Shown here one piece after another: positions 1-24,212 of a stretch of 64,000 nt of DNA. The DNA lies in IMG/VR virus record IMGVR_UViG_3300022744_000027, positions 12,806 through 76,805 of that record; one strand, written 5' to 3'. The notes under the pieces are model-generated. The model was not told the DNA's origin. It saw nothing but the letters and a program-made list of their open reading frames with translations, and searched no databases. The translations under genes were made by a program, and so were the position numbers. The stretch's first letter is position 1. The number at the start of each line of letters is the position of its first letter. This stretch comes from a virus. Its lineage: Duplodnaviria > Caudoviricetes.

Positions 1-2005
1 CAGCGCGGTATTCCTCCGTGCGCCCTGCCCCGACCTTTTGGAAGAAGTCGGCGGATTGCACGTCGGACAGGATGTCGGCTGGAGCATCGCCGTCTGCGGC
101 CCGCGCACCAATGTAGGTTTTTAGGCTGGCCTGCAGGTCTTCACCAGGTTGGAACGGCTGCGCCATGCGCTCGGCCACGCCGGGCTTCACGTCCATGACC
201 ATGTCGGGCCGATTGGCGACGCCCATGGGTAGCCAGCCGTCCTCGTCGTGGTCGCCGCGCATGATCGCCAGATTGCGCCGCACTTGGGCAATGTCCTCGC
301 GCGCAACGGGCTTGGCCAGGCGCGACATGCCAGCAGGCGTGACGGTGAGGAACGTGTCGCCACCGACCTTCTCCATCGCGTAATCGCCGGGCTGAAGCCC
401 GATGGCGCGAACCTGCGTGATCGCCGCCTCTGGCGATGTGTTGCCAAGGGATACCTGAAAGTCGCCGGAACCAGGGCCTTTCATGGCCACCACCAGCGCG
501 GCGTTCGCCTCCATCTCGCCTAATGCCTGCCCCAAGATGCGCTGAGCATCCCCGACAGCAGCGCGGCGGCGCGAATTCAGCTCTTGGGCTACGGCTAGGT
601 CGGCGCCTGTTTTGGCCTCGTCCGAGAGGTCGATGGCGGCCGCGGCGTCGGTCAGCTCCCGCGCCTGCTTTAGCGCCTTGGTGCTGGTGGTCATGTAGTG
701 GTTGACGTGCCAGTCCTGGATGCCATCGGCGACGTGCTGAACCTCGTCAGGGTTGAGGTCGGAGTGAAGGCGGCGCGCCAGCACCTGAGCGGCCCCAGCA
801 ACACCCAGCACATCCACCACGGAGCGATCCACAAGCGCGTCGCCACCCACGGCCATGGCCAGTGCGTTGATGCTGTTGTACGCCCCAACGCCCATGTGCC
901 CACCAAGGGTCTCGTTTGGCTGAGCTCCTGCGATTTTGCCGACTTCGGACAGAAAAGCGCGGGTCTGAGCGGTGCGCAGGTCGTTCTTGAGGTCTTCCTG
1001 CACCGAAGCGTCCACGTCGTCCGTGGTCTCCAGCACGAAGGCCTTGGGCTCAACGGGTGACTTGTCCACGTCGGCGTTGGCCTCTCGGGCGGCCTTTTCG
1101 ATGAGTGCGAGCTTCTTGCCCTCCCTCACCAGATCGAGGGCGTCCTTGGCGGAAATCAGGCTGGCGTCAGCCTTTGGTGCGGCGGGCTCCTTGATGCCGG
1201 CCAGCTCCTGTTTGATCAGTTTGGCGGCGTCGCCCTTGGCCAGAGCCTTCTGCCGCTGCTCGGGCGTCATGCCGCCAGTTTTCACTTCGACCGCTTCGGA
1301 TTCGAGTTTCTCCTGCGACAGCCCGGCAGCCTCGGCGCGGCCTTTGTAGTCGGCTTGGAACCCCATCCCGGCACCAGGTGGGCGAACGGGATCGAGGTCC
1401 GCGGCGGCAATCTCGTCGGGCGAATCGGAGAACAGCGGAACCTCGCCAACGCCAGCCTCTTCGCGCGCGGCGGGGCTGATCACCAACATTTGACGGCTCT
1501 GCTGGATGACCTCTTTGGCCTTGCTGAGCAAGTCGCGGTGGAATTTTGACCGCACCTTGTCGCGTGCGGATTCGGACAAATGCTCATAGTCGGCCTCGGG
1601 GAACTCCATGTCCTCGGGTGCCCAGCCTGCCTTTTTGGCGACGGCGCTGATGACCGACTGCTCGGCCTTCTTGCGCTGTTCGGCAATGTCCTTGCGGACC
1701 TGCTCCTTGGCACCATGGATGCCGGCAGCCTTGTCGGCGGCCATTTGTTCCTTGCGTGCGGCACGCTTATCGGCGGCCTTTTTTCCGGCTTCAGCCTTGT
1801 AATCAGAGTGCGATTTAACGCCTCGCAGCTTGAGGTAGTTCAAGCTGCCGCCAGCGCCACCAATGACGCGAGCAGAGCCATCCGGGTGCGGCTGGATGAG
1901 CACGGCCTGACCCTTTGAGCCTGGGCCGTTTGGGTGGACTGTGATCCACCGCGCGTCAGCAGGAATTGCGTCAGCCTTGATGAGAAGTCGTGGGATTTGC
2001 CGCAT
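1..2005 (-). CDS. N-terminal ~668 aa of a very large late protein (putative head-packaged protein); runs off the window
   Basis: Absent from the ORF track because no stop lies in the window. Frame starts MRQIPRLLIKADAIPADARWITVHPNG at ATG 2005 and is open in both end regions translated by hand (...QSADFFQKVGAGRTEEYRA at the edge); late-type promoter 14 nt upstream. Confidence 0.8.
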   Translation of the reverse strand, partial: MRQIPRLLIKADAIPADARWITVHPNGPGSKGQAVLIQPHPDGSARVIGGAGGSLNYLKLRGVKSHSDYKAEAGKKAADKRAARKEQMAADKAAGIHGAKEQVRKDIAEQRKKAEQSVISAVAKKAGWAPEDMEFPEADYEHLSESARDKVRSKFHRDLLSKAKEVIQQSRQMLVISPAAREEAGVGEVPLFSDSPDEIAAADLDPVRPPGAGMGFQADYKGRAEAAGLSQEKLESEAVEVKTGGMTPEQRQKALAKGDAAKLIKQELAGIKEPAAPKADASLISAKDALDLVREGKKLALIEKAAREANADVDKSPVEPKAFVLETTDDVDASVQEDLKNDLRTAQTRAFLSEVGKIAGAQPNETLGGHMGVGAYNSINALAMAVGGDALVDRSVVDVLGVAGAAQVLARRLHSDLNPDEVQHVADGIQDWHVNHYMTTSTKALKQARELTDAAAAIDLSDEAKTGADLAVAQELNSRRRAAVGDAQRILGQALGEMEANAALVVAMKGPGSGDFQVSLGNTSPEAAITQVRAIGLQPGDYAMEKVGGDTFLTVTPAGMSRLAKPVAREDIAQVRRNLAIMRGDHDEDGWLPMGVANRPDMVMDVKPGVAERMAQPFQPGEDLQASLKTYIGARAADGDAPADILSDVQSADFFQKVGAGRTEEYRA

Positions 2006-2011
2006 CGTCAG

Positions 2012-2027
2012 AGGATACGGTCACGAC
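2012..2027 (-). promoter_or_regulatory. Late-type promoter GTCGTGAC-cg-TATCCT (leaderless, ATG 6 nt after -10)
   Basis: Recurrent motif with fixed spacing. Confidence 0.7.
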
Positions 2028-2107
2028 GAGCATGATTCTTTTGGCTTAGAGACTTCGCCGACTTTGTGTGCTCTTACGCTGCGCCACAACAAAAACGGGG
2101 GGCACGG

Positions 2108-2440
2108 GTGGGGGACAGCAAACACGCTCGCATTGAGCGCGCGGTAATGCTCGCTAAGTCGGACGAGGGGGTAAACGCCAGCCTGGGGGAGATGGCCGAT
2201 TGCGCGTGCATGAGCCGCTTCCACTTCGCCCGCGTTTTTCGTGACGTTACAGGCAAAACTCCGATGGAGTACGTGCTCGAACAGAAGATCGAGTGCGCCA
2301 AGAGGCGACTGGCCACGGGTCGCTGCAGCATCGCGGCCGTCGCGGTGATGTGCGGATTTTCAGACCAATCACACCTGACGCGGGTGTTTAGGCGCAGCCA
2401 GGGGGAAACCCCGGCGCAATTCAAGCGCCGCCAAGAATAG
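2108..2440 (+). CDS. Stand-alone AraC-family HTH transcriptional regulator
   Basis: LGEMADCACMSRFHFARVFRDVTG and SIAAVAVMCGFSDQSHLTRVFRR...GETP double-HTH signature; start uncertain (2066-2147). Confidence 0.85.
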   Translation: MGDSKHARIERAVMLAKSDEGVNASLGEMADCACMSRFHFARVFRDVTGKTPMEYVLEQKIECAKRRLATGRCSIAAVAVMCGFSDQSHLTRVFRRSQGETPAQFKRRQE

Positions 2441-3578
2441 CCCGCAGCTCATCGCCGAACGCTGGGTCGTCTCCCGGAGCGTCCTCGATCACAGGCACCC
2501 ACCGGCCACGGCAGTGCGGGTGGGCCAGCCCGGCCGGGATTTGCCACATCTCGTCGGGCTCGCGGTCCACCAGCACGTCGCCGACGCGCTTCTTCGGAGA
2601 GGCAGAGCGGCCCACGTTGTTCTTGCCGGGCCAGATCATGGTGTCGGGGTTTTTGTCCGGGTGGTCGGCGGCGACGACCGTGACCACGCGGCCATCGATG
2701 CCGCGGCAAAAGGCGCACGCGCCCTCGTACCGCTCGACGCGCTGCACCTTGGTGCCAGGCTTCAGGCTGGCGATGTAGCCCTGCAGCTGGGCCTCGCCAG
2801 CCTCGGTGACGGCGATGCGCCGCCAATCCCGATTGAGGGCGCCGAACTCGTCCAGCAGCTTGGTCTCCAGGCTGCTGGTGCCCGGCGGCAGGTTGCCCAG
2901 CGCCCTCTGCTCCAGATCGGCGGCCACCAAGGCGCGCAGGCGGTGGCGGGTGTTGTCGGACAGGGCCTGCACGTGCTCGGCGGCGCGGGCGCGGGCGAAC
3001 GTGAGCACGGCCTGGGTGGCGGCAGACAATCCGGTGGCCTGCGCAGCCGACGAAGGCAGCGCCGCCAGAATGGCGTCGGCCTGCTTCGCCGTGGGCGTCT
3101 TGCCTTCGAGGTTGGCCTGCACCTTGCCCATCATCGTGGCCTTGGTGGCCAGCCAGTCGGCCTCGGCCACCAGCTCGCCAGCGGGCAGGTGTCGCTGCAC
3201 CACGTACTCGATGGCGAGAAGGTGGTCGTCCAGCGTCCAGACGGCGGGCGGCAGGCTTTCCAGGTACAGGCGGGCCAGGGACAGCTCGGCCTCGTTCCAG
3301 CGGGAAAGCATGCCGGGCGGCGTGGGCTGGATGGATGCGGTGGGAATGTGATTCGCGCCAGACTGCCAGGCCAGCAGCTGCTGGTGCACGGCATCCAAGC
3401 GGGCCAGGCCGCGCTCGGTGAACAACTCGATCAGGCGGCGCACCAGGGGGGAATCGTGGGGCTTCCAGATTTTGTCAGAACCGTGGTCGTGGCCATCCGA
3501 CAATGCCTTGTAGAGCCCCTCCAGCATGTCGTTGGTGGCGCGGATTGGCACATGCAAGAGATCGAGGAATAAGCCCAT
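2421..3578 (-). CDS. Phage head morphogenesis (MuF/SPP1 gp7-like) minor head protein
   Basis: RIAVTE, CxxC and HPHCRG motifs; late-type promoter. Confidence 0.75.
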   Translation of the reverse strand: MGLFLDLLHVPIRATNDMLEGLYKALSDGHDHGSDKIWKPHDSPLVRRLIELFTERGLARLDAVHQQLLAWQSGANHIPTASIQPTPPGMLSRWNEAELSLARLYLESLPPAVWTLDDHLLAIEYVVQRHLPAGELVAEADWLATKATMMGKVQANLEGKTPTAKQADAILAALPSSAAQATGLSAATQAVLTFARARAAEHVQALSDNTRHRLRALVAADLEQRALGNLPPGTSSLETKLLDEFGALNRDWRRIAVTEAGEAQLQGYIASLKPGTKVQRVERYEGACAFCRGIDGRVVTVVAADHPDKNPDTMIWPGKNNVGRSASPKKRVGDVLVDREPDEMWQIPAGLAHPHCRGRWVPVIEDAPGDDPAFGDELRAILGGA

Positions 3579-3584
3579 CCGGGC

Positions 3585-3600
3585 AGTGTCGCGTCACGAC
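3585..3600 (-). promoter_or_regulatory. Late-type promoter GTCGTGAC-gc-GACACT (leaderless)
   Basis: Motif 14 nt before ATG 3578. Confidence 0.7.
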
Positions 3601-3626
3601 AAAAAAACCCGGCACGAGGCCGGGTT
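3601..3626 (-). terminator. Intrinsic terminator
   Basis: AACCCGGC-CTCGT-GCCGGGTT followed by a T-tract on the minus strand. Confidence 0.8.
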
Positions 3627-3735
3627 CAAAACTCCTGCCCAGGGAGGAAAGGCCGGCCACCTGTAGAGTGGAAGGTCGGCAAGCCTGCCGCACGGGGCAT
3701 GGAGCCCACTACGGCGGCAGAGCGTGCCTAAAATG

Positions 3736-3943
3736 TTGATGGTGGCCGGTGCTGATCTCCGGCTTTGAGGCTATGGGCGTGTGGTGCCGCCCCGTTTTAC
3801 GTCTTGTCCTGCGCCATACAGAGCGGTGTTTATCCGCACTGGGCAGCTCAGGTCTTGCCCGCACCATCTGTAGCTCCACCACAGAACACCGAACAAGTCC
3901 TAGCTCTCACGATTCGCGCATCAGCCTGCGCATTCACCATCAA
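3736..3943 (-). ncRNA. Putative structured tRNA-like RNA (~208 nt)
   Basis: 9-bp closing stem TTGATGGTG/CACCATCAA; hairpins GCGCA-GGCTGA-TGCGC and GCCGG-AGATCAGCA-CCGGC with complementary loops; multi-hairpin insert; no convincing ORF. Confidence 0.55.
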
Positions 3944-4012
3944 TTCAGCACCCGACTTGCCCGGCGCACCAGCTTGTAGCCGACAAGCAGAGGACGGGTG
4001 CTGAATTGATGG
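3937..4012. repeat. Perfect 18-bp inverted repeat
   Basis: CCATCAATTCAGCACCCG (3937-3954) and CGGGTGCTGAATTGATGG (3995-4012). Confidence 0.9.
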
Positions 4013-4177
4013 CTCCGGGCCCTGCCCCCGGAAGGTTGTCGCGGCTCTCACGCGCATCAGCCGGGAAACCCCAGCCTGCCGGTTACGCTATCCGGCTCCG
4101 TGACGAGCAACTGAACTGCTCGCTGGTCGGCGGAACGAACTATACAACAACTTTATCGGAGCAGCGCGTTCACCGCG

Positions 4178-4577: not shown

Positions 4578-5099
4578 TTAAGCCCCCGGGCCCCATGGGT
4601 CCGTGTCGCTACCCGTCCCGCCCAACTCTTGTCCTCTGACTTGCACCAAGTTGACCGGCAACGGGGCTGCGTGCAGGGCCGCCATCATTGTCGCCCGCAC
4701 TGTGTCAGCGATCTCTTGAGCTGTTGGGGCCGTCGTCCCAACGGCGATGGCCTGGACCGGCTGCTGGTAATTCACCCGCACGGCATACCCACCCAGCGTG
4801 GGCACAAACGGGTCGCCCCCGCCCTCCACCAGCAAAACGCCCTCCGTCACGGCAAGCGTGTGGTCAGCCTCCATGGGGCGAATGCGCCAGCCGTTTTGCA
4901 GGTACACGTAAAATGGCACCGCCGTGCCCTGCGCCGGGTCGATCTGGTCGCCGCCAAGCAGCCGCAAGGCCATGGGGTATTTGCCGTTGTCGGCCGTGGC
5001 GTGCCAGCGCACCCACTCGCTCCACAGGGTGCGCACACTCAAGGTGCCACCAGCGTCTGAAACAATCAGGCGTGCAGTTCCGTCAAAGCTCAGGGCCAT
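4578..5099 (-). CDS. Hypothetical virion-associated protein
   Basis: Likely start MALSFDG (RBS GGAG); N-terminus resembles the neighbouring 465-aa protein (LYSxxVxxW, P+xxLxG). Confidence 0.7.
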   Translation of the reverse strand: MALSFDGTARLIVSDAGGTLSVRTLWSEWVRWHATADNGKYPMALRLLGGDQIDPAQGTAVPFYVYLQNGWRIRPMEADHTLAVTEGVLLVEGGGDPFVPTLGGYAVRVNYQQPVQAIAVGTTAPTAQEIADTVRATMMAALHAAPLPVNLVQVRGQELGGTGSDTDPWGPGA

Positions 5100-5109
5100 G
5101 CCAGCTCCA

Positions 5110-6507
5110 TCACTGGTATGCGCGGTCGGTTTCCGCAATCATCGCAATCGTGATGCCCTTGGAGCGCGCAATCGTGCCGCCAAACAGCACCGGCTTTGCA
5201 AAGCCCGGGCGCCCCGCCACCACGGTGACGTTGGCATCGGTGCCCGCCGTGCGCCCGCCTTGCGCGTTGCTGTCATAGGCAAACGTGAATGAGGTGGTGG
5301 CGGTGGTGATAGTGCCCGCGATGGGGTTGCCCGCCGCATCGTTCACCGTTACCGCGCCGCTCTCGCCGAAGTCGTCCAGCGAGCCGGGCAGCGTGGTGAA
5401 GAACATGCGGTAATAGCTGCCCGCACCCACCAACGCTGCGTTTGCCGTGATATAGCCGCCGCTGGTGTACGGGTAAACGCGCCCGATACCGTTTTGGTCA
5501 GTGAAAATCACGCGGTTGCTGTCGTTGCCGTCGATGTTGGAAACGAAAACGCCCTGCGCCGTGATCAGCGTATCGCCCTCGAAGCGCATCAGTAGGTCAG
5601 CAGTTTTCCCGTTGACCGCCCCAGCACCACTGTCAATATCCGTGTTCTGGCGTAACAGGTACTGTACCTTCGCATATACCTGCTCCAGCGTCGCCCCGTT
5701 GCCCTCAACGATCACGCGGAAGGGGTATGCACCGGCCCCGATGGTTTGGTTCTGGTCGGCCCCGTAGTAGGTTACGGTAATACCGTTGTAAGGCGCACTG
5801 GCCATCGCCGCATCGGCCGCCGCCTTGTTGCTGCCCAGCAAATTGGTGATCTTGAAGTCTTGCTGGTTGGCCAGCAAAAGGTTCACCTTGAAAGCGCCCG
5901 TGCCGGTTTCGCCGGTGTCTGAAAGCGTGCTGTCGTCATAGGTGTAGCCGTACTCGCGCACGTAGCCCTTGAGGTAGGCACGGGTGTCGAAGTTTCCATT
6001 GGCGGCATCGCCAAACACCTGAATGCCCAGGTTTGCCGCATCGGTGAACGTGAAGTTAATTGCGGCCCCGCCAACCGCTTTTTGGTAATACTGCTGCGCC
6101 CCGCTGTTCACATCGCCAAGTGCCACCGCGCCAACATACACGCGGTTCAATGTACCTGTGTCGGTGAAGCCGGGGAGCGCCGCCGTACTGCTCCACTCCT
6201 CCCAACCGCCGTCGCGGAGCATGTTGCGGGTCGCGTCGTTCTTTGGCTTCCAGCTGTTGTATTTGCGGCCATCCGTGCCGAATTGCCACTGGCCTGATTT
6301 GGCGTCCAGCGCATAAATGGGGAATGGGCTGTCCTGATAGGGCGCAGTTGTCCACAGGTCAACCAGCTTGGAATACAGGGCCTGGATGGTCACGCCGTCC
6401 TTAGCCACAAGGTTTCCAGCCGCCACCAGCTCGAATGTGCGGGCCGGTTCATCAAGTATCAGCTCTGTTCCGATATTGATCAGTGATTTTGAGGTGATTT
6501 TTGCCAT
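5110..6507 (-). CDS. Putative virion structural protein (465 aa, G/T/N/A-rich)
   Basis: Long ORF, RBS GGAGG, composition typical of beta-rich structural proteins. Confidence 0.75.
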   Translation of the reverse strand: MAKITSKSLINIGTELILDEPARTFELVAAGNLVAKDGVTIQALYSKLVDLWTTAPYQDSPFPIYALDAKSGQWQFGTDGRKYNSWKPKNDATRNMLRDGGWEEWSSTAALPGFTDTGTLNRVYVGAVALGDVNSGAQQYYQKAVGGAAINFTFTDAANLGIQVFGDAANGNFDTRAYLKGYVREYGYTYDDSTLSDTGETGTGAFKVNLLLANQQDFKITNLLGSNKAAADAAMASAPYNGITVTYYGADQNQTIGAGAYPFRVIVEGNGATLEQVYAKVQYLLRQNTDIDSGAGAVNGKTADLLMRFEGDTLITAQGVFVSNIDGNDSNRVIFTDQNGIGRVYPYTSGGYITANAALVGAGSYYRMFFTTLPGSLDDFGESGAVTVNDAAGNPIAGTITTATTSFTFAYDSNAQGGRTAGTDANVTVVAGRPGFAKPVLFGGTIARSKGITIAMIAETDRAYQ

Positions 6508-6519
6508 GTTGGCCTCCAG

Positions 6520-9108: not shown

Positions 9109-9289
9109 GCGTCGTCAATTCCAGCGCGGGGGCTTGTCGGGGCATGCCGCGAACGGCAAAAGGGTTTTTGCGTTCATTACGCAGTAACAAAGGCGGCACG
9201 TCACCACCAGCCCGGCCTGCTTTGCGTGCGGGCACGCCCGGCAAACCGCTAGGCGTTGGGCGGGGGTGGTGAGTGCCGTCATACCGCTA

Positions 9290-10078
9290 TCAGGCCGCGC
9301 GCGCTGCGGTCTTTGCTGCGGCGAATGCAGCGCCGAATCCAGGCTTCACGGCATCGCACAAACCTACGAATTGCGCGTAAATCTGGCCACGAATCATGCC
9401 AATGGCATTGCCGTGCTCGGTGTGGCGGGCGTCCTCGCGGTCGCGCAAGCTGTTGACGGCCGTTTGCGCGGCGTTGGCGGCAGAAAGCGCTGCGGATGCA
9501 TCGCCACCGGCTGTAGCAATGGCGGTGGCCATGCCCGTCAGCTGGTCTTGAATGCCCGCAATGGTCACGTCCAGCGCATTCAGGCGGGTGATCAGTGCCG
9601 CGATTTGCTGCGCTTGGCCCGCATCAACGCCTTGCAGCGTGGTGATTGTGTCGCGCAGGCCGTTAATGTCAGCCGCAATTTGCGCGCAGTCGCACGTTGC
9701 ACCGCCACCGCCCGCCTGCTCCATCGCGGCAATGCGCGACTCGTAGCTCAGGATGGTGCTGTTGATCTGGCTGATTTGATCAGCGGCGGCGTCGGCACGG
9801 CCTTCCAGCGCAACAACACGATCGATCAGGGCCAGCAGGTTCTGGAGGTTCTGCATGCCGGGGGTATCGGCATCGCCGTCCAGCATGGCCACCAGGCTTG
9901 CGATCTGGGATTGCAGCTGGGCAATGGCGGCGGTGTCGGTGCCGGTCAGAAGGTCAACTTGCTTTTGCAGGTTGCCGATTTCAGCGCCCATAACGGAGCC
10001 GACCTCGCCCAAAATACAGGCAAGCTCGGATTGAATCAGGGTTTTCAGGTCGTCGATTTGGGGGTTTTCAAGGGACAT
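9290..10078 (-). CDS. Long coiled-coil protein (putative fibre/whisker-like)
   Basis: Heptad-rich sequence with a central GGGGATCDC linker; start MSLENP (or 10090). Confidence 0.7.
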   Translation of the reverse strand: MSLENPQIDDLKTLIQSELACILGEVGSVMGAEIGNLQKQVDLLTGTDTAAIAQLQSQIASLVAMLDGDADTPGMQNLQNLLALIDRVVALEGRADAAADQISQINSTILSYESRIAAMEQAGGGGATCDCAQIAADINGLRDTITTLQGVDAGQAQQIAALITRLNALDVTIAGIQDQLTGMATAIATAGGDASAALSAANAAQTAVNSLRDREDARHTEHGNAIGMIRGQIYAQFVGLCDAVKPGFGAAFAAAKTAARAA

Positions 10079-10119
10079 AAGTGTTTCCAATTAGGGATGA
10101 AACATGGACAAGCCGCCAC

Positions 10120-10343: not shown

Positions 10344-11345
10344 TCACGCCTGCTTCTGAACTGCTCGCGTTATATTTCCGTCCTTGTCGCGTTCGATCTC
10401 TGTGACCATGCGGCGAGGCTCCGGCAATTCTAGCGTCACGTTTGGAGCTGGAACCACGACCGGCTCAATATTCACGACAGGAGCCGCAACGTTGACGACG
10501 GGCGCGGGCACGACCACGGGGTCGATGTTGACGACGGGGGCTGCCACATGGACGACCGGTGCGTCCACGTTGACCACGGGGGCCGGAACCACCACGGGCT
10601 CGATGTTGACGACCGGAGCAGCTTGCTGCGGCACGTTGACATGCACCACTGGCGGGGCCTGTTCCGGCACCGTTACATTGACCACCGGGGCGATCTGCTC
10701 CGGCACCTTTACGTCGATACGCGGGTCAAAGTTGATGACGGGCTGGGCTTGCACCAGGGCCTGTATCGCGAGCACAAGCTGCGACTGCAGTTCGGCAACT
10801 CCATCCATGCGCGCTGAAATCGCAGCCGCATCCTGGGCCCTGCTGGCAGCCAAAGAGGAAACAGAATGATGCATGGCAAGGACCATGCCATCCAGTGATT
10901 TGGCGAGGTCAGACAGGCTGTACAGGTTTACACCGCCAGCCGGACTTGAGCCGGTCGCTACAGGGGACTGAAATGACTTGGCAATCAACCCATTCGCGCT
11001 CGATTTGCGCATCACCAAGCGATCACTGCGAGCCTCCGGCGGGATGCCGACATACCGGCGGTTTCCCGCGTTATCGGCAACGATTATGCCGTCCGCACCC
11101 TCTTCGAGCACCCGGTACCGCTGCATAGTGCGCTTCTTGTGGCCAGCGACATGCTCCCACTTGACCTTGTGATGCTCGCCTCCGTGTTCAACGGTGCAAC
11201 CGTGCTGTCCGGCGCAAACGACCTTGCCGGAAACGGGAAGCCCGGCCTTATGGAAATAGACCTCATCTCCAGGGAATGCGTGGCGCACAGATGGAGTGGC
11301 TGCATTTTTCTGCTTGGTGCTCTTGGGGGCGTTGAAGCTGGCCAT
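10344..11345 (-). CDS. Portal-adjacent protein with tandem (A)PVV[NH][VI] repeats
   Basis: Start overlaps portal stop; about 9 PVV-N/H repeats in the C-terminal half. Confidence 0.8.
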   Translation of the reverse strand: MASFNAPKSTKQKNAATPSVRHAFPGDEVYFHKAGLPVSGKVVCAGQHGCTVEHGGEHHKVKWEHVAGHKKRTMQRYRVLEEGADGIIVADNAGNRRYVGIPPEARSDRLVMRKSSANGLIAKSFQSPVATGSSPAGGVNLYSLSDLAKSLDGMVLAMHHSVSSLAASRAQDAAAISARMDGVAELQSQLVLAIQALVQAQPVINFDPRIDVKVPEQIAPVVNVTVPEQAPPVVHVNVPQQAAPVVNIEPVVVPAPVVNVDAPVVHVAAPVVNIDPVVVPAPVVNVAAPVVNIEPVVVPAPNVTLELPEPRRMVTEIERDKDGNITRAVQKQA

Positions 11346-13120
11346 CAGGGCTCCACTGTGAATACTGGTAATCCAAATGACTTTGCCATTCCTGGCTCGT
11401 CATCCTCCGGTTCGGACGCCGGAGTGCCGCCATCATCGAACATTCCGTCTTCAGTCTTGCCGGCGCCATGTTCGTCGCCGTCATGCTGTCCATCTCCGGC
11501 ATCGCTGTCGATGGACCCGTAGTCCTCGCCTTGGTCATGGTCATCGCCATCTTCAGGCGACTGACCACCACCAGGGCCGGGGGCGCCGTAGTCTTCCTGC
11601 TGGGCCTGGTTTTCAGCCTGCCACGCCGACATCAGCGACGGATTCAGTGGGGCGTTGCCCCATTCCCCCTTAATCTCCTGCATGCCTTGAGCCTTGCGGG
11701 CCTCGTTGAGCGTGAGGATGGTCTTGTCCTTGTCCCAGCGCATCTGGGGGTCTTCTTCATCGAGGCCGGTCCAGCGGAAGACGTACTTGTCGCCGAACTC
11801 GGACACGATGTAGTCGGAAAACAAATCCTCGAAGTGGGACAGCAGCGGGCGTAGGCCCTTGTCCTTGGAGTTGATCAGCTTCTCTTCGGTGTCGGAGCCG
11901 GACAGCGAAGACGTGCCAGCGGTGAACGACTCGAAATTGATCTCGTCGGGGGCAATGCCGTAGATCGCGCAGATGATGGACGTGAGGAACGTCATCCACT
12001 TGGCGAACATGATCTCGTTCACGTCCACGCCGAAGTTTTCAAACGCGGCCTTGGACTCCTGATTTTTCGACACCAGCACGGGGAGCGTCCACGCGTTGTT
12101 GATGCCCTTCACCATGGCATTCCAGTACCGCTTGAAGGCAGCCATGTCCTGGTCGCTGTACTCGCCGGTCAGGTGCAGCAAGCCCTTGGGGATGGCATTC
12201 GAATCGAAATACTTGGTGTTGTAGCTGAAGGCATTGAGGAAGCCCGTGACCACGCGCACCAGCAGCTCGGTCTCGGACAGGCCGTAGCCGCCCACCAGGA
12301 CATCGGTGCGGGGATTGCGCGGAACGTAGATCAGGTCGTCGTGGGTGTAGGCGGCCCGGATGTTCCCATCCACCACCTGCAGCGCGAAAATCTCGTCCTC
12401 GTCGCGGTAGCCGATCTCGTTGGCGAGCCGGATGGTCGCGCCGTCCACGGCATACATGCCGTCAATCCCCAGCGACTTGTCGCGCTTGTATTCTGTTTCG
12501 ATTGGGGCGCTGTCCAGCGTGAGGCTGTCGCGCACCAGCTTGGCCATCAGGTTGGAGAAGTTGTCGCGCTTCAGGCGGGCGCGCTGGCGCGGGTTGCGCT
12601 CCCAGCCGCTGTGCGTGAAGAAGTCCTGCATCAGCGCGATGGATTGCTGCTCGTCGCTGCCAAGTTTTGCGTTGGGGTCTTTCAGGCGCACCTGGAACCC
12701 AGGGCCCTTGCCACCGTCGGGCACTCGGCAAAACCGCTTCACCTGACGGATGCGGGTGAAGATCACGGCCGACAGAATCGGGGTCTGGTCAACCATGCCG
12801 CGCAGCATGTCGAAGCTCATGTTCGACCAGCGCTCACGCCACTCGCCCATGGCGTTGCCATAGGTGTCGTTCACCCACACGGACTGCATGCCGGCCTTGC
12901 CGTCGGCTATGGCCCGGCTCGGGAAAGGTATGACGTTGGGTTTTGCCAGCGACTTTGCGAACTCACTCTCTTCGTACTGCCGCTGCATGTACTCCACGAC
13001 CGGCATCATGTCGGTAACGCTTTTGGGTAGCGCCGCCTGCTGCGCCTCTTGCATGGCGTGCGAGCGCTCATCTTGCGGAGCGGCGCCATTGAAGGCGGTG
13101 GATAGTGCAGTTTCAGCCAT
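11345..13120 (-). CDS. Phage portal protein
   Basis: 591 aa; GYGLSETE, YFDSNAIPKGLL, LTLNEARK, GNAPLNP portal motifs; near terminase. Confidence 0.9.
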   Translation of the reverse strand: MAETALSTAFNGAAPQDERSHAMQEAQQAALPKSVTDMMPVVEYMQRQYEESEFAKSLAKPNVIPFPSRAIADGKAGMQSVWVNDTYGNAMGEWRERWSNMSFDMLRGMVDQTPILSAVIFTRIRQVKRFCRVPDGGKGPGFQVRLKDPNAKLGSDEQQSIALMQDFFTHSGWERNPRQRARLKRDNFSNLMAKLVRDSLTLDSAPIETEYKRDKSLGIDGMYAVDGATIRLANEIGYRDEDEIFALQVVDGNIRAAYTHDDLIYVPRNPRTDVLVGGYGLSETELLVRVVTGFLNAFSYNTKYFDSNAIPKGLLHLTGEYSDQDMAAFKRYWNAMVKGINNAWTLPVLVSKNQESKAAFENFGVDVNEIMFAKWMTFLTSIICAIYGIAPDEINFESFTAGTSSLSGSDTEEKLINSKDKGLRPLLSHFEDLFSDYIVSEFGDKYVFRWTGLDEEDPQMRWDKDKTILTLNEARKAQGMQEIKGEWGNAPLNPSLMSAWQAENQAQQEDYGAPGPGGGQSPEDGDDHDQGEDYGSIDSDAGDGQHDGDEHGAGKTEDGMFDDGGTPASEPEDDEPGMAKSFGLPVFTVEP

Positions 13121-13126
13121 GCGGGA

Positions 13127-13142
13127 AGTGTGCTGTCACGAC
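13127..13142 (-). promoter_or_regulatory. Late-type promoter GTCGTGAC-ag-CACACT (leaderless, portal)
   Basis: Motif 14 nt before ATG 13120. Confidence 0.7.
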
Positions 13143-17186: not shown

Positions 17187-17924
17187 TCAGTCGTTCATCA
17201 AGTGGCCGGAGTGGGTCACCCATGCGCGAGACTCCGCGTCGTCGCCTTTGTGGGCGTACTCGTAAGACGCCTCGCCGGTCTTGTTGTTCTTGCCGGACTT
17301 GCCGGTGAACGAGAAAGTCTTGCCTTCATGGTGGACCGTGTGGTCGCCCTTGCCATTGCTAGGAGGCTCGAACCCGCCAACGTGATGCGTGGAGCCATCG
17401 TCCTTCTTGGCGGACAGCTTCTCGCTGGACTTCGCCTGCATCGGCCACTTTTCAGAGCCGACATTTACGGTCTTGGTGGGAGCGGCAGAGCCGGTCTTCT
17501 GGTCGGCCTTTTTCACAGGCAGCGCCAGGCGGGGCTCCGGCTTGGAGGCAGGAGCTGCATCCGTAGGCTTTTCGTCACCCGGCCGCACATGCTTGTAACC
17601 ATTTCTACCCATGCGCTGCGAGTCGGCGCCATTGACCACGACATGGTATCCGTGATCGGGGTGCGACATAACAAAAGCACCACCCTTGGAGGAAGCGGCC
17701 CTATTAGCGAACCTGTGAGCAGCGCCAGACGTCGAGAACGCTGCCACACCTGACCGAGACTTTGCACCAGCGGAGACAGCATGAGCCACGGCCGGGTGCA
17801 CAGGATCGGCAGCCGCTGCAACCCGCTTGTCGTCATGCGCCTGCACCACAACGCCATCTTTGCGTGTGTAGGAATCGACGTGAGACTTCAGCAGATCAGC
17901 GCTGACGATAAGGATTTTTGACAT
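17187..17924 (-). CDS. Basic, His-rich late protein with LLKS-HVxxYTRKDG N-terminus (putative internal head protein)
   Basis: RBS GGAG; own late-type promoter. Confidence 0.75.
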   Translation of the reverse strand: MSKILIVSADLLKSHVDSYTRKDGVVVQAHDDKRVAAAADPVHPAVAHAVSAGAKSRSGVAAFSTSGAAHRFANRAASSKGGAFVMSHPDHGYHVVVNGADSQRMGRNGYKHVRPGDEKPTDAAPASKPEPRLALPVKKADQKTGSAAPTKTVNVGSEKWPMQAKSSEKLSAKKDDGSTHHVGGFEPPSNGKGDHTVHHEGKTFSFTGKSGKNNKTGEASYEYAHKGDDAESRAWVTHSGHLMND

Positions 17925-17945: not shown

Positions 17946-17961
17946 AGTATGCGGTCACGAC
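17946..17961 (-). promoter_or_regulatory. Late-type promoter GTCGTGAC-cg-CATACT
   Basis: Same spacing; followed by a short leader with GGAG. Confidence 0.7.
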
Positions 17962-18360: not shown

Positions 18361-19176
18361 TCAAAACAATTTTTTACTTCCGGTCCACTTCGCCTGCGGC
18401 TGCGGCTCGGGCTTCTTGGGTGCCGGGCCAGCGCCAACAGCCTCAGCCACCGGGTGATCGGCGTGGCCATTCAAGAGCTCGTACAGGTTACCCTTGGGGC
18501 AGAGGTGCACGGCCTGTGTTTCCCAGCCTGCATCCGTGGGGTCGCCACCCACGCGCACGGCGCGGTACATGCGGGCCTTTGACGTGGTGCGGTCGAAGTC
18601 ACCGATAAATCCGGTGATGCGAACGCGGAGCCCGACTTCCTCGAAGCACTCCTTCAGCGCATTCGCTTGCAGCGAGAGCCCCTTCTCCGCCGTGCCCTTG
18701 GGTAGCGTGGCGTGATACCCACCGAAGGCGTTTGTCGGCGCGCAGAGCCACACGCGGCCGTCCGGTTCTTCCACCACCACTCCAGCGCCAACGGACTTGC
18801 CCTGGGCCACGTGGAACGCGGGCTCTTCGAGGTCGTCATTTATTCCGTCGCAGTAATCCCACCCCTCGGCGGTAGTCGGCGCATCGCGCCAGCGGCGAAA
18901 CGGCACGCCGTTCAACTCGCGGGGCACGTCGCCACCAGGCACGAACGTGGCCACGGCGTCGGGGTTGTCCCAAGTGGACTCGGCCGACGGATGGTGCGGG
19001 GCCTTGACCAGCACGGCCTCGCCCTTTTCGCCCGGCTTCGGATGATGGTGCGGTGGCAGCGGCTCGTGGCCGTTGCGGTCATACGGGCGGACGTAGTGCT
19101 CGCCACGCATGTGCCCCTTGACGTGGGCCTTGGCGAGATCGTCGCCGAACTCCAGTACGGCATCAGTCATTGCCAA
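18361..19176 (-). CDS. NUDIX hydrolase with N-terminal extension
   Basis: Nudix box PKGTAEKGLSLQANALKECFEEVGL. Confidence 0.9.
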   Translation of the reverse strand: MAMTDAVLEFGDDLAKAHVKGHMRGEHYVRPYDRNGHEPLPPHHHPKPGEKGEAVLVKAPHHPSAESTWDNPDAVATFVPGGDVPRELNGVPFRRWRDAPTTAEGWDYCDGINDDLEEPAFHVAQGKSVGAGVVVEEPDGRVWLCAPTNAFGGYHATLPKGTAEKGLSLQANALKECFEEVGLRVRITGFIGDFDRTTSKARMYRAVRVGGDPTDAGWETQAVHLCPKGNLYELLNGHADHPVAEAVGAGPAPKKPEPQPQAKWTGSKKLF

Positions 19177-19663: not shown

Positions 19664-19670
19664 TTTTTAT

Positions 19671-22600
19671 TCACTCGGTTGGCAGAATAACAGCTTCGAT
19701 CACGTGGCTTGACGATTTGCCAAACCCGTCCGCATCGCCGTCCTTGCCTTTTACAGACAGGATCATAAGGCGAGTTCCAGGCGGCAGGATCATCTCATCC
19801 TCGCCGGAGTTCGAAGATAAAGCACCACCACCAGCAATCGAGTGGTGCCCGACCCATAAACCCTTCACGCCGGGGCCCACGTGTAGCTTCAGGTGCACGT
19901 TTCCGTGCCACGAAGACGGACGGATCGACGTGGACATGATCGCTGGCTCCTGAAGAATTTTCCCCGAGGACTTCAGCAGCTGATCAAGGTCACTGCCGTG
20001 CAGCGAAATCTTGCGCGACAGGACAGTGCCCGGTGCAATATCATGCCCCAGCGTTTTCAAAGCCTCTCCGGCAGCCTTTGCCGCGCCGCTGGGGTTGCCA
20101 TCCCACAGCGAGCCATTCATGGCTTTATACGAGCTGCCAGTGTAACTCTTGACCGCCTGCTTTTGCGTGGCGGGCATTTTTGCAATCGCGGCTTGGGCCT
20201 GTTTGGCATAGGTCTGAGCAGAAAGCGCGCCCCCACCCTCTGCGTGCTTGATTTTTTCCGGCAGGCCCAAATCCGCCAGATTCACCGCCCCGGGCTCGCC
20301 GAGCACAATAAACTTGCCGAGCTTTTGCGCGACAGAGCTGGAAGCCGGACCAGTAAACGCGGGGTACGCAGCATTCAGCGAGTGCAGCGGGTGGCCACCG
20401 TCAAACCTGAACTTCTTGGGCGGGTTTAGCTGGTAGTTGATCTCGTTGACGGCCTGCTGGGCGTAGCCCTTCACGTGCTGGCTCGGGTGCTCCAGCACAG
20501 GCTTCTCGCCGGTGACATGGCCGGTGTCCTTGTCGTAGACCTTGGCCTTCAGGCCTTTGATGGCGTCCAGGTCGCCCGTCTTGGCGGCGGCGAAAACCGC
20601 CTGCACGGCTTCCTCGTTGGCTTTGTTGAGAAACTCCTTCGAGGACGGACCAGAGCTGCCATTGCCGCCCCAGTTGAGGAAGGACGGCGGCGCGCTAATG
20701 TCTTCGGGCTTGAAGACCGGGGCCTTCTTCTTCTTGACGGCTGCGGGAAACCGCTTCGCTAGGTCGGCTTTGCGGGCAATCAGCGTCTCGGCCAACTTCG
20801 TCTTGGCTGCGGCATCGCCGGGCCCGTACTGGTTGACCATGGCGCGAATGGCCACGTCGCTGATGGCCAGCACCTTTGCCGCGCTGGCGGTCAGGTCGGC
20901 CTTGGTCATGCCCTTGAAGACAGACGCGGCCTGCGGGTTTTTGCCCGCGTCCAGCAGGGTGTCGAGCTCGTCCACCTTGGAGCCAAAAGGCTTCTTCTCG
21001 CCTTGGGCGCGGTATTCGAGCGAGCCACCGGCATCCACGCGGTGGGCCTTGCCGTCGGGGCCAACCTGCAGGTTGTCGTAGCCGAGGCCGACCACGTCCC
21101 AGTTGCCCAGCCATGCGTCGACCGCGAAACCGGCCTGCGCGCCGTCAACCTTGGCAAGCGCGCCAGGAGTGGCGGCCTTTTTGATGTCCACCCACTTTGA
21201 GGCAATCCCGACCTTGCCGCCCTTGGTGACCAGCACAGCGTCCTGGCTGGACAAGCCCGCGAGGGCGTACAGCTTGGCCGCGAGCACTTCGGACTTGGCG
21301 GTGTCGGCGTCGGCAGGGAATTTGCAGTACCACTCCTGCCCGCTTTGGTCTTTGAACTTGCCGCCGGGGTTGGAGCCGCCCTGCCCGCCGGTTTGAGCCC
21401 ATCCGTCCATGGGGAGCATGCCGCCAGCGGAGATGGGGGCGGAGGCAGCTGGGGCCGCGGGAGCTGACGGAGCTGCGGGAGCGGCGGGCTTCGCACCAAC
21501 GCCACCCGTCATGGCGTCGATCAGCGCCTGAGCAACCTTTTTCGATGCGGGCTTTCCCTTCGATTCGTTGTCAATCCACGCCTGCAGGCCAGCAACATCA
21601 CCGGCCACTGCCATCGCTTTGAATTTGTCCTTGTTCCCGGTTGCTGTTTTTGCGGCAACGGAGGCCATGATCTTGATTGCGTGGCCTGGCTTGAGGGCTT
21701 TGGTGGATGGCGCCTGCACGGTGGCTGGGGCTGCAGGCTGGTACGACGGGTCGAGCTTTTGCAGCGCCGCATCTGGCGGGATGGGGTATCCCATCGCCTT
21801 CATCTGGGGGAGAATTTCGGCGAGCGTTTCGCCCGGAATGGTGTCGGGCTCGGAGAACGAGCCATCCGTCACGCCAAATTCAAACCCGTCATCGCCGCCT
21901 CCGGCGAGGTAATAACCTTTCCCGTCTTTCTCAAATTCCAGCGATGGGTTGCCATCTAGGCCGGGATTGGATGCCGAGTGGGCCCACCCACCCATGCCGT
22001 CGTCCTGCTTGACCCAGTGCCCATTTTTGAACACCAGCATGCCGTCGGCGCCAGGCTTGGTGTCGCCTTCCTTGGGGCCCTGCTCCACGGTGGTGGGCGC
22101 GGCCTGGGAAGCCCGCTGAGGCTTCGTCCCAGCCAGCGCGTGCCCTTGCAGCTTGTGCGCTTTCTGCTGGGCTGCCTCCAAAGCGTCATCGTAGTCTTCG
22201 TCCGTTTGATTTTCTGCCGGCATACTCTCGTTCACGGCATCCATGAAGTATTCCATGGCGGCGTCCGGGTCGTGGTCCGTCAGCGCCTCGTAGGCCTCGG
22301 CCTGCGCCTTGGTTGGCACTTTCCCAGCGGAGATTGCGGCCTTCCACTCGCTGACGACGGGGTATGGGTCGGCGGCTGGCGGTGGCGGTACCGCAGACGC
22401 AGCCATCATCGACAAGGCGTGCGAGGCGGCGGTCTTGAGCGCGGGGTTTGCTGCGTTCTTTGCCAGCTGCTGCAGGGTCTCGGTTGAACCCGCTCCAATT
22501 GCATCCTTGAGCAGCTTGGACTCGGCGTCTGACAAGCCGTCCAGTGAGACGCCAGCGCCAGCCGGAGCGGGCTGCACAGGCACAGCAGCCGTCGCGCCCT

Positions 22601-24212
22601 CCACACCCAACCCAGCCAGGGCGGTCTGAGCCGTGAGCGCCTGCTTCTTGGCGTAGGTCTGCTTGGCTCCGGCCTTCGAGTCGATAAAGGCCTGCAGCCC
22701 GGCGGTGTCGCCAGCGAAGGCCATGGCCTCGATTTTTGCCAGCGCGGCGTTGTGGCTCTTGGCGTTGGTGTTTTCGGCGGGCAGCTTCAGCTTGAACCAC
22801 GGGATGGATTGCAGGTTCTGCAGCTGCTGGGCGGAGAGTGCGCCAGGGGTGGTGGCGGCCGGCTTTTGAGCAAGCAACGACGAAATGTAATCTTTGACCG
22901 ACTGCTTTAGCCCAGCCTCTGGCGACATCCACTCCTCAAGCTCCGACCACTCACCCTTGGAGGCGAGCTTGTCAAACATGGCCTTAGAGCTGGGCGTCAT
23001 CACGAACGCGCCGCCCTGCGTTTTCCAGTGGCCGTCCTTGAGTACCATCGTGGAGCCGTTTGCCCCGGGTTTTGTGTCGCCCTCTTTCGGACCGGTGTCA
23101 GTCACCTGCACACCCATGGCGCCTGCCACAGCGGCCATGGCAGCGGCAGCGCCGTGCCAGCCTTTGTCGAGCGCCTGCTTATGCGCGACCTTGATGCCGT
23201 CGGCGTCGCCATTCATGGCGGAGTCGTGAGCCAGCTTTCCGGTTGGGGTAGACAGCGAAAAGCCCATCGCTCCATCACCGGGCAGGTCGGTGTGCGCGGC
23301 CTTTATTTCCTCGGGGGTCAGCTTTTTAACAGCCGACTCCACAAACGGCTTGGCCGTGCCTTTTTCGATAGCGGTATGCAGCGAGGACTTGGGGATTGCG
23401 ACGGTATTCTTCTGGCCGGGCACCTTGGCGCCCAGCTTATTCAGGTAATACTGGTCCTCGTTTTGGTTGTAGACCACCCACTTGCCGGCGTTCATCTTCT
23501 CGTACTGGCTGGAGAACTCGAAGACGGTGCCGGTCGAAACATTTGCCTGCTTCTCAGCCAGAACCTTCTGCGCGTAGGCCACGATGTGCGGGTTGTGCGC
23601 GTTGTTGGCGATCACAGCCTCAAGCAAGTCATGCGACCCGGCGTCAATCGTGGCCTTGGTCTTGGGAGGGATTGGCGCAGAGGCGGCGGGCTCGGCTGGC
23701 TCCGCAGCCTTCGGTGCCAGGTGCTCAGGCAGTCCAGTCGGATGCGGGTCGGCGGGCTCGGCCACCTGGGCGGCGGCGTGGGTACCGGGTTTCTGGCCCG
23801 GGGTGACGGTGTGCGCAGAGCCGTGAAGACCAAGCAAGTGGTTGGCAATCTTCGCCAACTTCTGCCCATAGGTATTCGACCCAAACGACGCACCAACGAT
23901 GGCCGTCACATCACCAGCGTCAGACCACGCGCGCAGCTTTTCCAGCGCCTTATTGAAAACGGGCGCGTTCACATTCGAGTCCGGCAGCTTCAGCGCGGAC
24001 CATTGGTCGTCGGTAAAGTGCGCGGCGGCCTCGTGGTGCCCGGCAGACTTGGGATGCGCGGCGACCGGCGCGCCCTTGGGGGCTGGTGCGTCGTGGGTGA
24101 TCTTCCGCCACCGGGGAGGGTTGCCGTAAAGAGCGTACCCACCCTTATGGGCAATCGAGGTGCCGGTGCCGGGTCCGGATTTCAGCAGCAGGATGAGACG
24201 CGGTGTGTTCAT
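19671..24212 (-). CDS. 1513-aa multidomain protein: repeats + HipA/PI3K-like kinase + C-terminal VIP2/Alt-type ADP-ribosyltransferase
   Basis: Kinase: GGQGGSNPGG, WYCK, EVLAAKLY, DAWLGNWD...DN, VDAG. ART: YTGSSYKAMNGSL, LSRK, MSTS, EDEMILP (R-STS-ExE). Confidence 0.8.
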   Translation of the reverse strand: MNTPRLILLLKSGPGTGTSIAHKGGYALYGNPPRWRKITHDAPAPKGAPVAAHPKSAGHHEAAAHFTDDQWSALKLPDSNVNAPVFNKALEKLRAWSDAGDVTAIVGASFGSNTYGQKLAKIANHLLGLHGSAHTVTPGQKPGTHAAAQVAEPADPHPTGLPEHLAPKAAEPAEPAASAPIPPKTKATIDAGSHDLLEAVIANNAHNPHIVAYAQKVLAEKQANVSTGTVFEFSSQYEKMNAGKWVVYNQNEDQYYLNKLGAKVPGQKNTVAIPKSSLHTAIEKGTAKPFVESAVKKLTPEEIKAAHTDLPGDGAMGFSLSTPTGKLAHDSAMNGDADGIKVAHKQALDKGWHGAAAAMAAVAGAMGVQVTDTGPKEGDTKPGANGSTMVLKDGHWKTQGGAFVMTPSSKAMFDKLASKGEWSELEEWMSPEAGLKQSVKDYISSLLAQKPAATTPGALSAQQLQNLQSIPWFKLKLPAENTNAKSHNAALAKIEAMAFAGDTAGLQAFIDSKAGAKQTYAKKQALTAQTALAGLGVEGATAAVPVQPAPAGAGVSLDGLSDAESKLLKDAIGAGSTETLQQLAKNAANPALKTAASHALSMMAASAVPPPPAADPYPVVSEWKAAISAGKVPTKAQAEAYEALTDHDPDAAMEYFMDAVNESMPAENQTDEDYDDALEAAQQKAHKLQGHALAGTKPQRASQAAPTTVEQGPKEGDTKPGADGMLVFKNGHWVKQDDGMGGWAHSASNPGLDGNPSLEFEKDGKGYYLAGGGDDGFEFGVTDGSFSEPDTIPGETLAEILPQMKAMGYPIPPDAALQKLDPSYQPAAPATVQAPSTKALKPGHAIKIMASVAAKTATGNKDKFKAMAVAGDVAGLQAWIDNESKGKPASKKVAQALIDAMTGGVGAKPAAPAAPSAPAAPAASAPISAGGMLPMDGWAQTGGQGGSNPGGKFKDQSGQEWYCKFPADADTAKSEVLAAKLYALAGLSSQDAVLVTKGGKVGIASKWVDIKKAATPGALAKVDGAQAGFAVDAWLGNWDVVGLGYDNLQVGPDGKAHRVDAGGSLEYRAQGEKKPFGSKVDELDTLLDAGKNPQAASVFKGMTKADLTASAAKVLAISDVAIRAMVNQYGPGDAAAKTKLAETLIARKADLAKRFPAAVKKKKAPVFKPEDISAPPSFLNWGGNGSSGPSSKEFLNKANEEAVQAVFAAAKTGDLDAIKGLKAKVYDKDTGHVTGEKPVLEHPSQHVKGYAQQAVNEINYQLNPPKKFRFDGGHPLHSLNAAYPAFTGPASSSVAQKLGKFIVLGEPGAVNLADLGLPEKIKHAEGGGALSAQTYAKQAQAAIAKMPATQKQAVKSYTGSSYKAMNGSLWDGNPSGAAKAAGEALKTLGHDIAPGTVLSRKISLHGSDLDQLLKSSGKILQEPAIMSTSIRPSSWHGNVHLKLHVGPGVKGLWVGHHSIAGGGALSSNSGEDEMILPPGTRLMILSVKGKDGDADGFGKSSSHVIEAVILPTE

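Follow-up and report, generated by a model that had tools for sequence, protein, structure and literature searches.

In phage T4, the internal proteins IPI-III and Alt, a packaged ADP-ribosyltransferase (ART), are unrelated injected proteins that share a short N-terminal capsid-targeting sequence (CTS) ending at a site of the phage's own protease gp21, which follows an I/L-x-E rule (cited in PMC9024508 and PMC12991175). In phage P1, the N-terminal 30 residues of DarB, a large antirestriction protein of methylase/helicase type, suffice to load a reporter into capsids, the capsid protein matures at E120↓S121 (the arrow marks a known or putative cut throughout), and the authors describe no consensus among the Dar N-termini (Gonzales et al. 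2022, PMC9024508). In SPN3US and phiKZ (gp245), many head-internal proteins have N-terminal propeptides that end at one protease motif, copies of this motif are multiplied in scaffold-like propeptides, and the ejection proteins of SPN3US possess protease-cleaved N-terminal propeptides (PMC10052503). Polyvalent proteins, finally, are giant multidomain effectors encoded beside head genes, with ART, SNF2 helicase, InPase, PBECR and methylase domains; packaging and injection have been predicted for them (Iyer et al. 2017, PMC5512222). Here we analyse a stretch of 64,000 nucleotides of viral DNA (the window; bases 12806-76805 of the single 76,805-bp contig IMGVR_UViG_3300022744_000027, ~62% G+C), in which four proteins begin with a short leader ending in L-x-K↓S/A. 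In function this leader appears, by analogy, to resemble the T4 CTS, the SPN3US/phiKZ propeptides and the P1 DarB signal, while its sequence resembles none of them, and it is read as a new sequence variant of the known capsid-targeting propeptides of T4, phiKZ and P1 type. Specifically, we put the probability at about 60% that the leaders are propeptides recognised by the phage's own SPO1/Twort-type head-maturation protease, marking cargo that is loaded into the head and injected.

The window is derived from a temperate, PHB04-like myovirus genome of 76.8 kb with genes for tail sheath, major capsid protein (MCP), head protease, portal and GpA-type terminase (assigned with Pfam and PHROGs). Its head module is partly 60-75% identical at the DNA level to those of Aeromonas phage ST4, Pseudomonas phages Jeremy, Dolphis and Touem01, and Bordetella phage PHB04, all of which are integrase-bearing myoviruses of 90-95 kb. 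Every gene that enters into the finding lies on the minus strand. Coordinates are those of the window unless prefixed by G000, which denotes whole-genome positions and applies to the protease, scaffold and MCP genes, located outside the window.

The four N-termini quoted in the original prediction are all found at their minus-strand starts (Table 1), and belong to a SNF2-helicase polyvalent protein (pv1516), an ART polyvalent protein (pv1513), a NUDIX hydrolase and a protein of 245 residues (p245). The claim that these proteins are otherwise unrelated holds, as all-against-all BLAST yielded no significant similarity beyond short stretches (best E-value 0.021), so that ordinary paralogy does not account for the shared N-termini. 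The tag is not uniform, however, as two flavours of leader are present. Type 1 leaders consist of a hydrophobic run ending in L-L-phi-K↓S/A (phi, a hydrophobic residue), as in the helicase (PRLLIK↓A) and the ART protein (PRLILLLK↓S). Type 2 leaders end in D-L-x-K↓S/A and continue with HVxGY(T)RxDGxxVxxH, as in p245, which from its start at 17924 reads MSKILIVSADLLK↓SHVDSYTRKDG, and in the NUDIX protein, which reads (L)AMTDAVLEFGDDLAK↓AHVKGHMRGEHYVRPYDR from a TTG start at 19176, an ATG with better Shine-Dalgarno spacing being found two codons downstream. The related HV motif noticed earlier behind two of the tags is present, and in the NUDIX protein AHVKGHMRGEHYVRPY is a diverged copy of the module that follows the p245 leader.

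Of the cargo itself, pv1516 has 1516 amino acids in the genome, its gene covering window positions 1-2005 with the first 668 residues inside and the rest outside, and contains SNF2/DEAD helicase domains (phrog_62, E-value 3.5e-203). In pv1513, PF03496 (ART) matches residues 1415-1489 and Alt-like PHROGs also match; of the former label 'kinase-ART', Pfam recovers the ART part only, the kinase part being putative. Together with their homologues, which add WGR, ART-PolyVal, InPase and methylase domains, both proteins are large, combine several effector domains and lie beside head genes, as described for polyvalent proteins. The NUDIX hydrolase is identified by PF00293 at residues 128-231. Pfam, NCBIfam and PHROGs returned no match for p245, the leader module, the PVV-repeat protein p333 or p166; Atlas structure rows gave weak leads only (a phage NUDIX cluster and a SNase cluster), and a feature search no usable match. 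A Sec or lipoprotein signal peptide would show some 7-15 hydrophobic core residues and, behind them, an AXA site or a lipobox Cys. Direct reading of the leaders discards this candidate, as the hydrophobic run comprises only 4-6 residues, lacks Cys and is followed by K-S/A. As a separate observation on the helicase family, the homologues P0134, P0136, P0143 and P0144 harbor inteins (Intein_splicing, LAGLIDADG) inside the SNF2 domain.

The leader is a real feature beyond chance, and it is conservation rather than motif counting that is decisive in this respect. Of 106 ART homologues, taken as large proteins that share residues 1-130 of the ART protein, 102 display L-[LF]-[LIV]-K and behind it S (62), A (39) or G (1); the remaining four are two with PALAK↓A and two that start downstream of the leader. 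The leader lysine is never replaced by arginine in the 106, although the leaders comprise 75 distinct 9-10-mers. Analogously, in an ART alignment of 28 sequences K11 is the only phi-x-K-[SAG] lysine retained in 28/28, the next best reaching 20. The codons vary freely (AAG 43, AAA 38; Ser by TCN and AGC; six Leu codons), so selection acts on the peptide and a nucleotide-level signal is ruled out by the codon diversity. In the p245 family alignment (24 members), L11, K13 and H15 are invariant. Orthologues in the relatives maintain the leaders while the flanking residues drift, as in MKPILFLK↓AS for the PHB04 orthologue of pv1516, and MDLMK↓AHVKGYSRKDGTYV, PLVK↓GHVKGYTKRDGTYV and ALLK↓GHIQGYTKRNGTYV for the NUDIX orthologues of ST4, Jeremy and Touem01, respectively. 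An AlphaFold2 model of the first 130 residues of pv1516 (36-row alignment, mean predicted local distance difference test score, pLDDT, 86) places residues 1-9 below a pLDDT of 50 and outside the fold, which begins at R19 (RWITV...), suggesting that the helicase leader is a free tail rather than a strand of the domain. In p245, modeled as mostly disordered with a confident C-terminal beta domain, the leader forms a low-confidence helix.

The prohead protease that had been postulated outside the window is indeed present, about 3 kb beyond it (G000 8840-9748, phrog_1028, E-value 5.4e-29). A profile of 46 clade proteases recovers the SPO1 gp3.2 head maturation protease with 53 bits and a Twort-like prohead serine protease with 28 bits, and GNIDLDH and PSVGG, which we take to hold the catalytic His and Ser, align with FNFDH and FSVEG of the SPO1/Twort-type enzymes. 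With the gene order running from the portal to protease, scaffold and capsid protein, as in the SPO1/Twort/HK97 type, these similarities place the enzyme among the prohead serine proteases of that type. It carries an N-terminal [ML]-L-K↓A-T site in 40/40 homologues, and its residues ~204-232 copy the mature N-arm of the MCP (K↓ALEASY..GGAAL..QSLD, 63% identity to MCP 35-64, E-value 4e-5). The K↓ALEA copy in the C-terminal part recurs in 31/40 homologues as well as in the SPO1 and Twort-like phage proteases, and such mimicry may serve to incorporate the protease into the prohead, with its later release by self-cleavage.

The predicted scaffold (G000 8202-8843, 213 aa) is acidic and, as anticipated, studded with the motif at invariant lysines: it contains seven phi-x-K-[SAG] motifs, and when 28 sequences are aligned, motif lysines account for 6 of 12 invariant columns. 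Across 42 distinct scaffold homologues there are 315 motifs, compared with 54.1±7.0 (maximum 73) in 300 shuffles, an excess of about six-fold, and the SPO1 scaffold has 11 K↓S motifs. The MCP (G000 6655-8163) is distantly homologous to the SPO1 and phi812 capsid proteins (E-values 5e-18 to 1e-10), and also carries the motif, as foreseen, in GDLKK38↓A39LEAS, aligned to the phi812 maturation site K24↓S25; the SPO1 MCP has ALNK↓ALEAG. The pattern L-x-K↓[AS]-L-x-A is matched by 30 of 39 distinct N-termini taken as MCP, and of the nine misses seven show L-x-K-A-L by eye, another has a stretch that stops short of the site, and the last is a protease reading frame picked by mistake. The full-length phi812 chain reads QEDVVK24-S25-FQTGY and the 439-residue chain (9row/9rox/9roz) starts one residue before FQTGY. 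Thus, the deposited mature protein begins behind K24, where K38↓A39 of the present MCP aligns, and from the length difference of 24 residues we infer that residue 1 of that chain is S25. Aggregated, the scaffold, the capsid protein and the mature phi812 chain suggest phi-x-K↓S/A as cleavage consensus.

The K↓S/A sites quoted earlier for the portal, p385 and the PVV-repeat protein are all present as well. The C-terminal site of the portal is also found in ST4, PHB04 and Jeremy and in 11/17 IMG/VR homologues, and the N-terminal one is kept in 4/4 relatives; a further portal candidate added by the motif scan, ALPK↓S, was dropped since it is not conserved. In p385 the site, [LI]-[YF]-K↓[AS], occupies the same place in 4/4 relatives and in 26/36 distinct IMG/VR homologues (approximate window). 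The protein p385 is conserved in the head module of relatives, where it lies between portal and protease; 'MuF-like' is a putative label for it, with a single weak PHROG match (portal-C-terminal, E-value 1.8e-4). The PVV-repeat protein p333 starts with a small N-terminal domain, which PHB04 gp034 also has, and continues with three K↓S motifs and then a series of (A)PVVN(V/I) repeats. Among the 22 homologous reading frames listed, 14 possess phi-x-K-[SAG] at about residue 100-121, just behind the N-terminal domain they share and ahead of variable C-termini, two have it only elsewhere (residues 14 and 54), and six, mostly very short, have none.

In this genome, the motif is concentrated in the head/cargo block, in 7/23 genes as against 2/74 others (Fisher p = 0.0005, with the block defined post hoc). 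The head genes and the tagged genes also appear to share their expression. GTCGTGAY occurs 11 times in the window, always on the minus strand, where 4.45 are expected and 0/100 shuffles reach 11, and outside the window at G000 9770, 5295 and 2662. The box lies exactly 14 nucleotides before the ATG of five window genes (pv1516, p385, portal, pv1513 and the gene at 28279-28884), and at this distance genome-wide before six head/cargo genes, the protease included, none of which has a Shine-Dalgarno sequence. Other gaps are 29 nucleotides before p245, 3 at G000 5295 and 30 at window 63451. The box is often located directly after a terminator, with a hairpin and T-run at p385 and p364. It resembles a late promoter from which mRNAs with very short leaders would start, and being common to tagged and head genes it would imply the same late expression for both.

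The leader is moreover reused on other cargo. In PHB04 it is found on a DarB-like methylase-helicase of 2097 residues (MIILLTK↓AQ...HVGAHVRKDGTVVKPH), on a HD phosphohydrolase (MIVFLK↓AQVAGYTRQDGTV) and on a 251-residue protein. In 80 IMG/VR loci recovered by the helicase N-domain, it marks DarB-like proteins of ~2000 residues, InPase-like proteins (240-780 residues), small proteins and helicases. Of these loci, 52 have a protease match, 46 a capsid-protein match and 46 a scaffold match, while 28 yield no more than p385 or portal, or pv1516 alone; as they mostly share one head module, they add depth rather than independence. The PHB04 DarB-like protein and a Ulx-like protein adjoin the helicase gene. 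P1 DarB was nevertheless rejected as a sequence relative of the leader, since its translated N-terminus lacks both phi-L-L-phi-K↓S/A and HVxGY and tblastn aligns the methylase region only; the P1 Ulx N-terminus bears no likeness to the leader either.

The p245 leader and module, LLKSHVxxYTRKDGxVVQAHDDKR, recur in 23 further proteins (57-100% coverage, 72-90% identity), 21 of 134-429 residues and two longer, the remainder of which is built of shuffled small His-rich modules. Second, internal copies of the module are located in P0003, P0005, P0025 and P0026, the one in P0025 retaining a start-like MPMTKSLVLVTGDLAK↓AHV. Members of the p245 family (17187-17924; P0003-P0026) are largely disordered and His-rich, with modules shuffled among them, and it is possible that they are counterparts of the T4 internal proteins.

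A further pattern concerns the RWITVHPNG domain behind the helicase leader, which forms 359 clusters at 50% identity and among 50,697 phage records is found only in PHB04 and Mecenats66. Listing 150 of the 359 cluster representatives and dropping 18 without recognisable anchor left 132, of which 112 have phi-x-K-[SAG] within 20 residues upstream of the domain, mostly 6-10 residues away (range 6-12), compared with 18/236 controls. This holds for 33/37 N-terminal and 79/95 internal domains, the part upstream of the internal ones being another effector (InPase, PBECR2 or ART-PolyVal), and arginine replaces the lysine in none of the 132 windows. These sites are either retained leaders that serve as dicing sites in fused polyproteins or a structural boundary. 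For the RWITVHPNG proteins without motif, P0241 and P0255, no viral contig was found.

Taken as propeptides, the leaders would act as follows. The tagged enzymes would be made late, along with the head genes, and taken into the assembling prohead with the leader still attached, the docking contact being provided perhaps by the L-L-phi before the lysine or by the HVxGYTRKDG module. The protease would then cut after the invariant lysine, at phi-x-K↓S/A. By the same rule it would dice the scaffold, remove 38 residues from the capsid protein, and trim itself, p385 and probably the portal. The freed SNF2 helicase, ADP-ribosyltransferase, NUDIX hydrolase and small disordered His-rich proteins would remain inside the filled head alongside the DNA and pass into the host together with it. 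Both the cleavage of the leaders and the presence of the tagged proteins in the virion are predictions from sequence. The original proposal of a cleavable head-loading tag is, as a whole, partly supported: motif conservation, the protease, the scaffold and the capsid-protein site agree with it. A predicted complex of ART residues 1-60 with the scaffold (213 residues, 28-row alignment), the receptor candidate modelled, scored 0.00 against a mark of 0.32 and weighs neither for nor against the proposal.

A number of observations weigh against this account. By count, the loose motif [LIVMF]-x-K-[SAG] occurs in the first 25 residues of 8 genes of this genome, where ~7.5 are expected, and the strict form phi-phi-phi-K-[SAG], with 13 hits in 562 proteins of five genomes, reaches within residues 1-30 a density only 2.1 times the internal one (p = 0.011). 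The gene sets for both counts stem from a crude caller based on third-position G+C with longest-frame starts, so some N-termini may be wrong; the caller also missed the scaffold gene due to its acidic low-complexity middle. With respect to the sites themselves, the fourth residue before the cut is L in 92/102 type 1 leaders, whereas the scaffold sites have D/E/T/G at the fourth to sixth positions. Moreover, a position matrix of 39 scaffold sites ranks head proteins first and leaves the hydrophobic leaders near zero, not separated from background. Hence, the protease may not see the leaders as it sees the scaffold sites. The ST4 NUDIX leader has only five residues (MDLMK↓A), and leaders this short can hardly target anything by themselves. 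The N-terminal portal site is present in only 6/16 IMG/VR homologues (strict window). Cleavage is improbable at some motif copies within the protease fold, VLAK↓S immediately behind the presumed catalytic Ser and VLAK↓ALEES; a motif match alone does not make a cleavage site. Neither Pfam nor NCBIfam recognises the protease, and a PDB sequence search gave no match for it either. Finally, the literature search found no virion proteomics for the PHB04-like clade; it also returned no K↓S/A rule or tagged cargo for this clade or for Herelleviridae, with subscription journals mostly outside its reach.

Some of these data would also fit a leader that is never cut, but remains on the mature protein as a docking or ejection element, attaching to part of the head or portal, or afterwards to the host membrane. 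The hydrophobic residues four and five positions before the lysine, unlike those of the scaffold sites, make the likeness to the protease motif partial, K-[S/A]-H-V-x-x-Y-T-R-K-D-G, which spans the putative cut, is conserved as a whole, and the P1 DarB targeting signal is not reported as cleaved in the accessible part of its description (PMC9024508). However, the lysine is never exchanged for arginine in the 106 ART homologues or the 132 RWITVHPNG windows, and the residue behind it is restricted to S, A or G. This combination matches the capsid and scaffold sites and is unusual for mere hydrophobic docking, and the leader is left disordered by AlphaFold2. We regard an uncleaved element as unlikely.

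An equally improbable explanation, in our view, is that phi-phi-K-[A/S] is a generic boundary or linker signal of polyvalent proteins, unrelated to head loading, with any cutting performed by a peptidase domain of the protein itself or by a host protease after injection. The motif ahead of most internal RWITVHPNG domains speaks for it, as does the proposal of Iyer et al. (2017) that polyvalent proteins undergo autoproteolysis by their own metallopeptidase domains (PMC5512222). Conversely, no peptidase domain was found in pv1516 or pv1513, the same motif marks the scaffold, capsid protein and protease of the same genomes, and the internal copies look like leaders retained after gene fusion, as in P0025. 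Chance resemblance of short low-complexity N-termini, which the chance-level loose count and three fortuitous-looking strict hits of the 13 (terminase and two early proteins) might suggest, is rejected as highly improbable by the conservation in ART homologues and RWITVHPNG windows and by the reuse of the leader on unrelated cargo.

More speculatively, phi-phi-K↓A/S could be a general load-and-cut code of a large, mostly uncultured phage group. Under such a code, reading frames starting M-x(0-30)-phi-L-L-phi-K-S/A would be injected, giant polyvalent proteins would be polyproteins diced in the capsid by the head-maturation protease at internal leaders they have retained, as the motif 6-12 residues upstream of internal RWITVHPNG domains hints, and S/A-H-V-x-x-Y-T-R-K-D-G, as the new N-terminus, would be a handle for capsid retention or exit. 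We consider this extension doubtful. Ordinary tryptic virion proteomics cannot detect a cut after lysine, and such a code would for this reason have escaped notice.

Returning to the known systems, the likeness to T4 lies in a leader shared by several unrelated proteins of one phage, one of which, the ART protein, matches the family of the packaged Alt. Unlike in T4, where gp21 follows I/L-x-E, the predicted cut rule reads phi-x-K↓S/A, the leader takes the form of a hydrophobic L-L-phi-K stretch, the head module is of SPO1/Twort rather than T4 type, and the case is made here from sequence alone. P1 is paralleled by the DarB-like protein of PHB04, itself a leader carrier, with a shared leader here in place of the non-consensus Dar N-termini. 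SPN3US and phiKZ are jumbo phages with a glutamate-type motif and sites mapped by mass spectrometry, whereas the sites here are predicted. Herelleviridae have a homologous capsid protein and protease (phi812, PDB 5lii/9row; SPO1, 9vel), but leader-tagged polyvalent cargo was seen only in the PHB04-like clade. For polyvalent proteins, the accessible text of PMC5512222 describes packaging via MuF fusions and processing via intrinsic metallopeptidases, and there no protease-matched N-terminal leader.

The surroundings of these genes hold further features. Just upstream of the ART gene lie genes for a protein with a Tad2-like (Thoeris anti-defence 2) domain (24912-25523; PF11195, E-value 1e-22) and for a N6/N4 DNA methylase with a weak ParB-N match (26267-27703). 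Directly after the capsid gene, G000 5709-6629 encodes a T5orf172/MUG113 (GIY-YIG-like) endonuclease, probably a homing endonuclease. In relatives p385 is close to the portal, unlike here, where a block at 4578-10090 with genes of 186, 465, 862, 55, 266 and 75 amino acids intervenes between p385 and the portal-adjacent p333. Family searches gave no match for these six genes, and the block may be an inserted fibre or moron block.

Table 1. Window positions of leaders, candidate processing sites and GTCGTGAY boxes.
Feature	Position	Strand	Details
Leader of SNF2-helicase polyvalent protein (pv1516)	1976..2005	minus	MRQIPRLLIK↓A; originally quoted as MRQIPRLLIK↓AD, start 2005
Leader of p245	17886..17924	minus	MSKILIVSADLLK13↓S; gene 17187-17924
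Conserved module after p245 leader site	17817..17885	minus	SHVDSYTRKDGVVVQAHDDKRVA
Leader of NUDIX hydrolase	19129..19176	minus	ends GDDLAK↓A; gene 18361-19176
Leader of ART polyvalent protein (pv1513)	24180..24212	minus	MNTPRLILLLK11↓S; gene 19671-24212; 1513 aa
Portal N-terminal 56 residues, candidate propeptide	12953..13120	minus	ends ESEFAK56↓SLAK; gene 11345-13120, PF04860
Portal C-terminal 11 residues, candidate trimming site	11348..11380	minus	after EPGMAK580↓SFGL
p385, predicted 24-residue N-terminal propeptide	3507..3578	minus	ends LEGLYK24↓A; gene 2421-3578
PVV-repeat protein (p333), motif stretch	10899..11006	minus	VMRK114↓S, LIAK123↓S, DLAK149↓S; gene 10344-11345
GTCGTGAY box before pv1516	2020..2027	minus	14 nt before ATG
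Further GTCGTGAY boxes, among others in the window	3593-3600, 13135-13142, 17954-17961, 24227-24234, 28899-28906	minus	

If the leaders are indeed propeptides of the head-maturation protease, a compact capsid-loading tag would exist outside T4 and P1, and the specificity of the SPO1/Twort-type prohead protease would be linked to cargo selection. Polyvalent proteins would then be processed by the head protease and not only by their own peptidases, and trypsin-based virion proteomics would miss maturation cuts after lysine. For the clade concerned, temperate myoviruses of Proteobacteria, the injected repertoire would become readable from sequence in PHB04, Jeremy, Dolphis, ST4, Touem01, Mecenats66 and many IMG/VR contigs, and would comprise antirestriction enzymes, ADP-ribosyltransferases, NUDIX and HD hydrolases and small disordered proteins.

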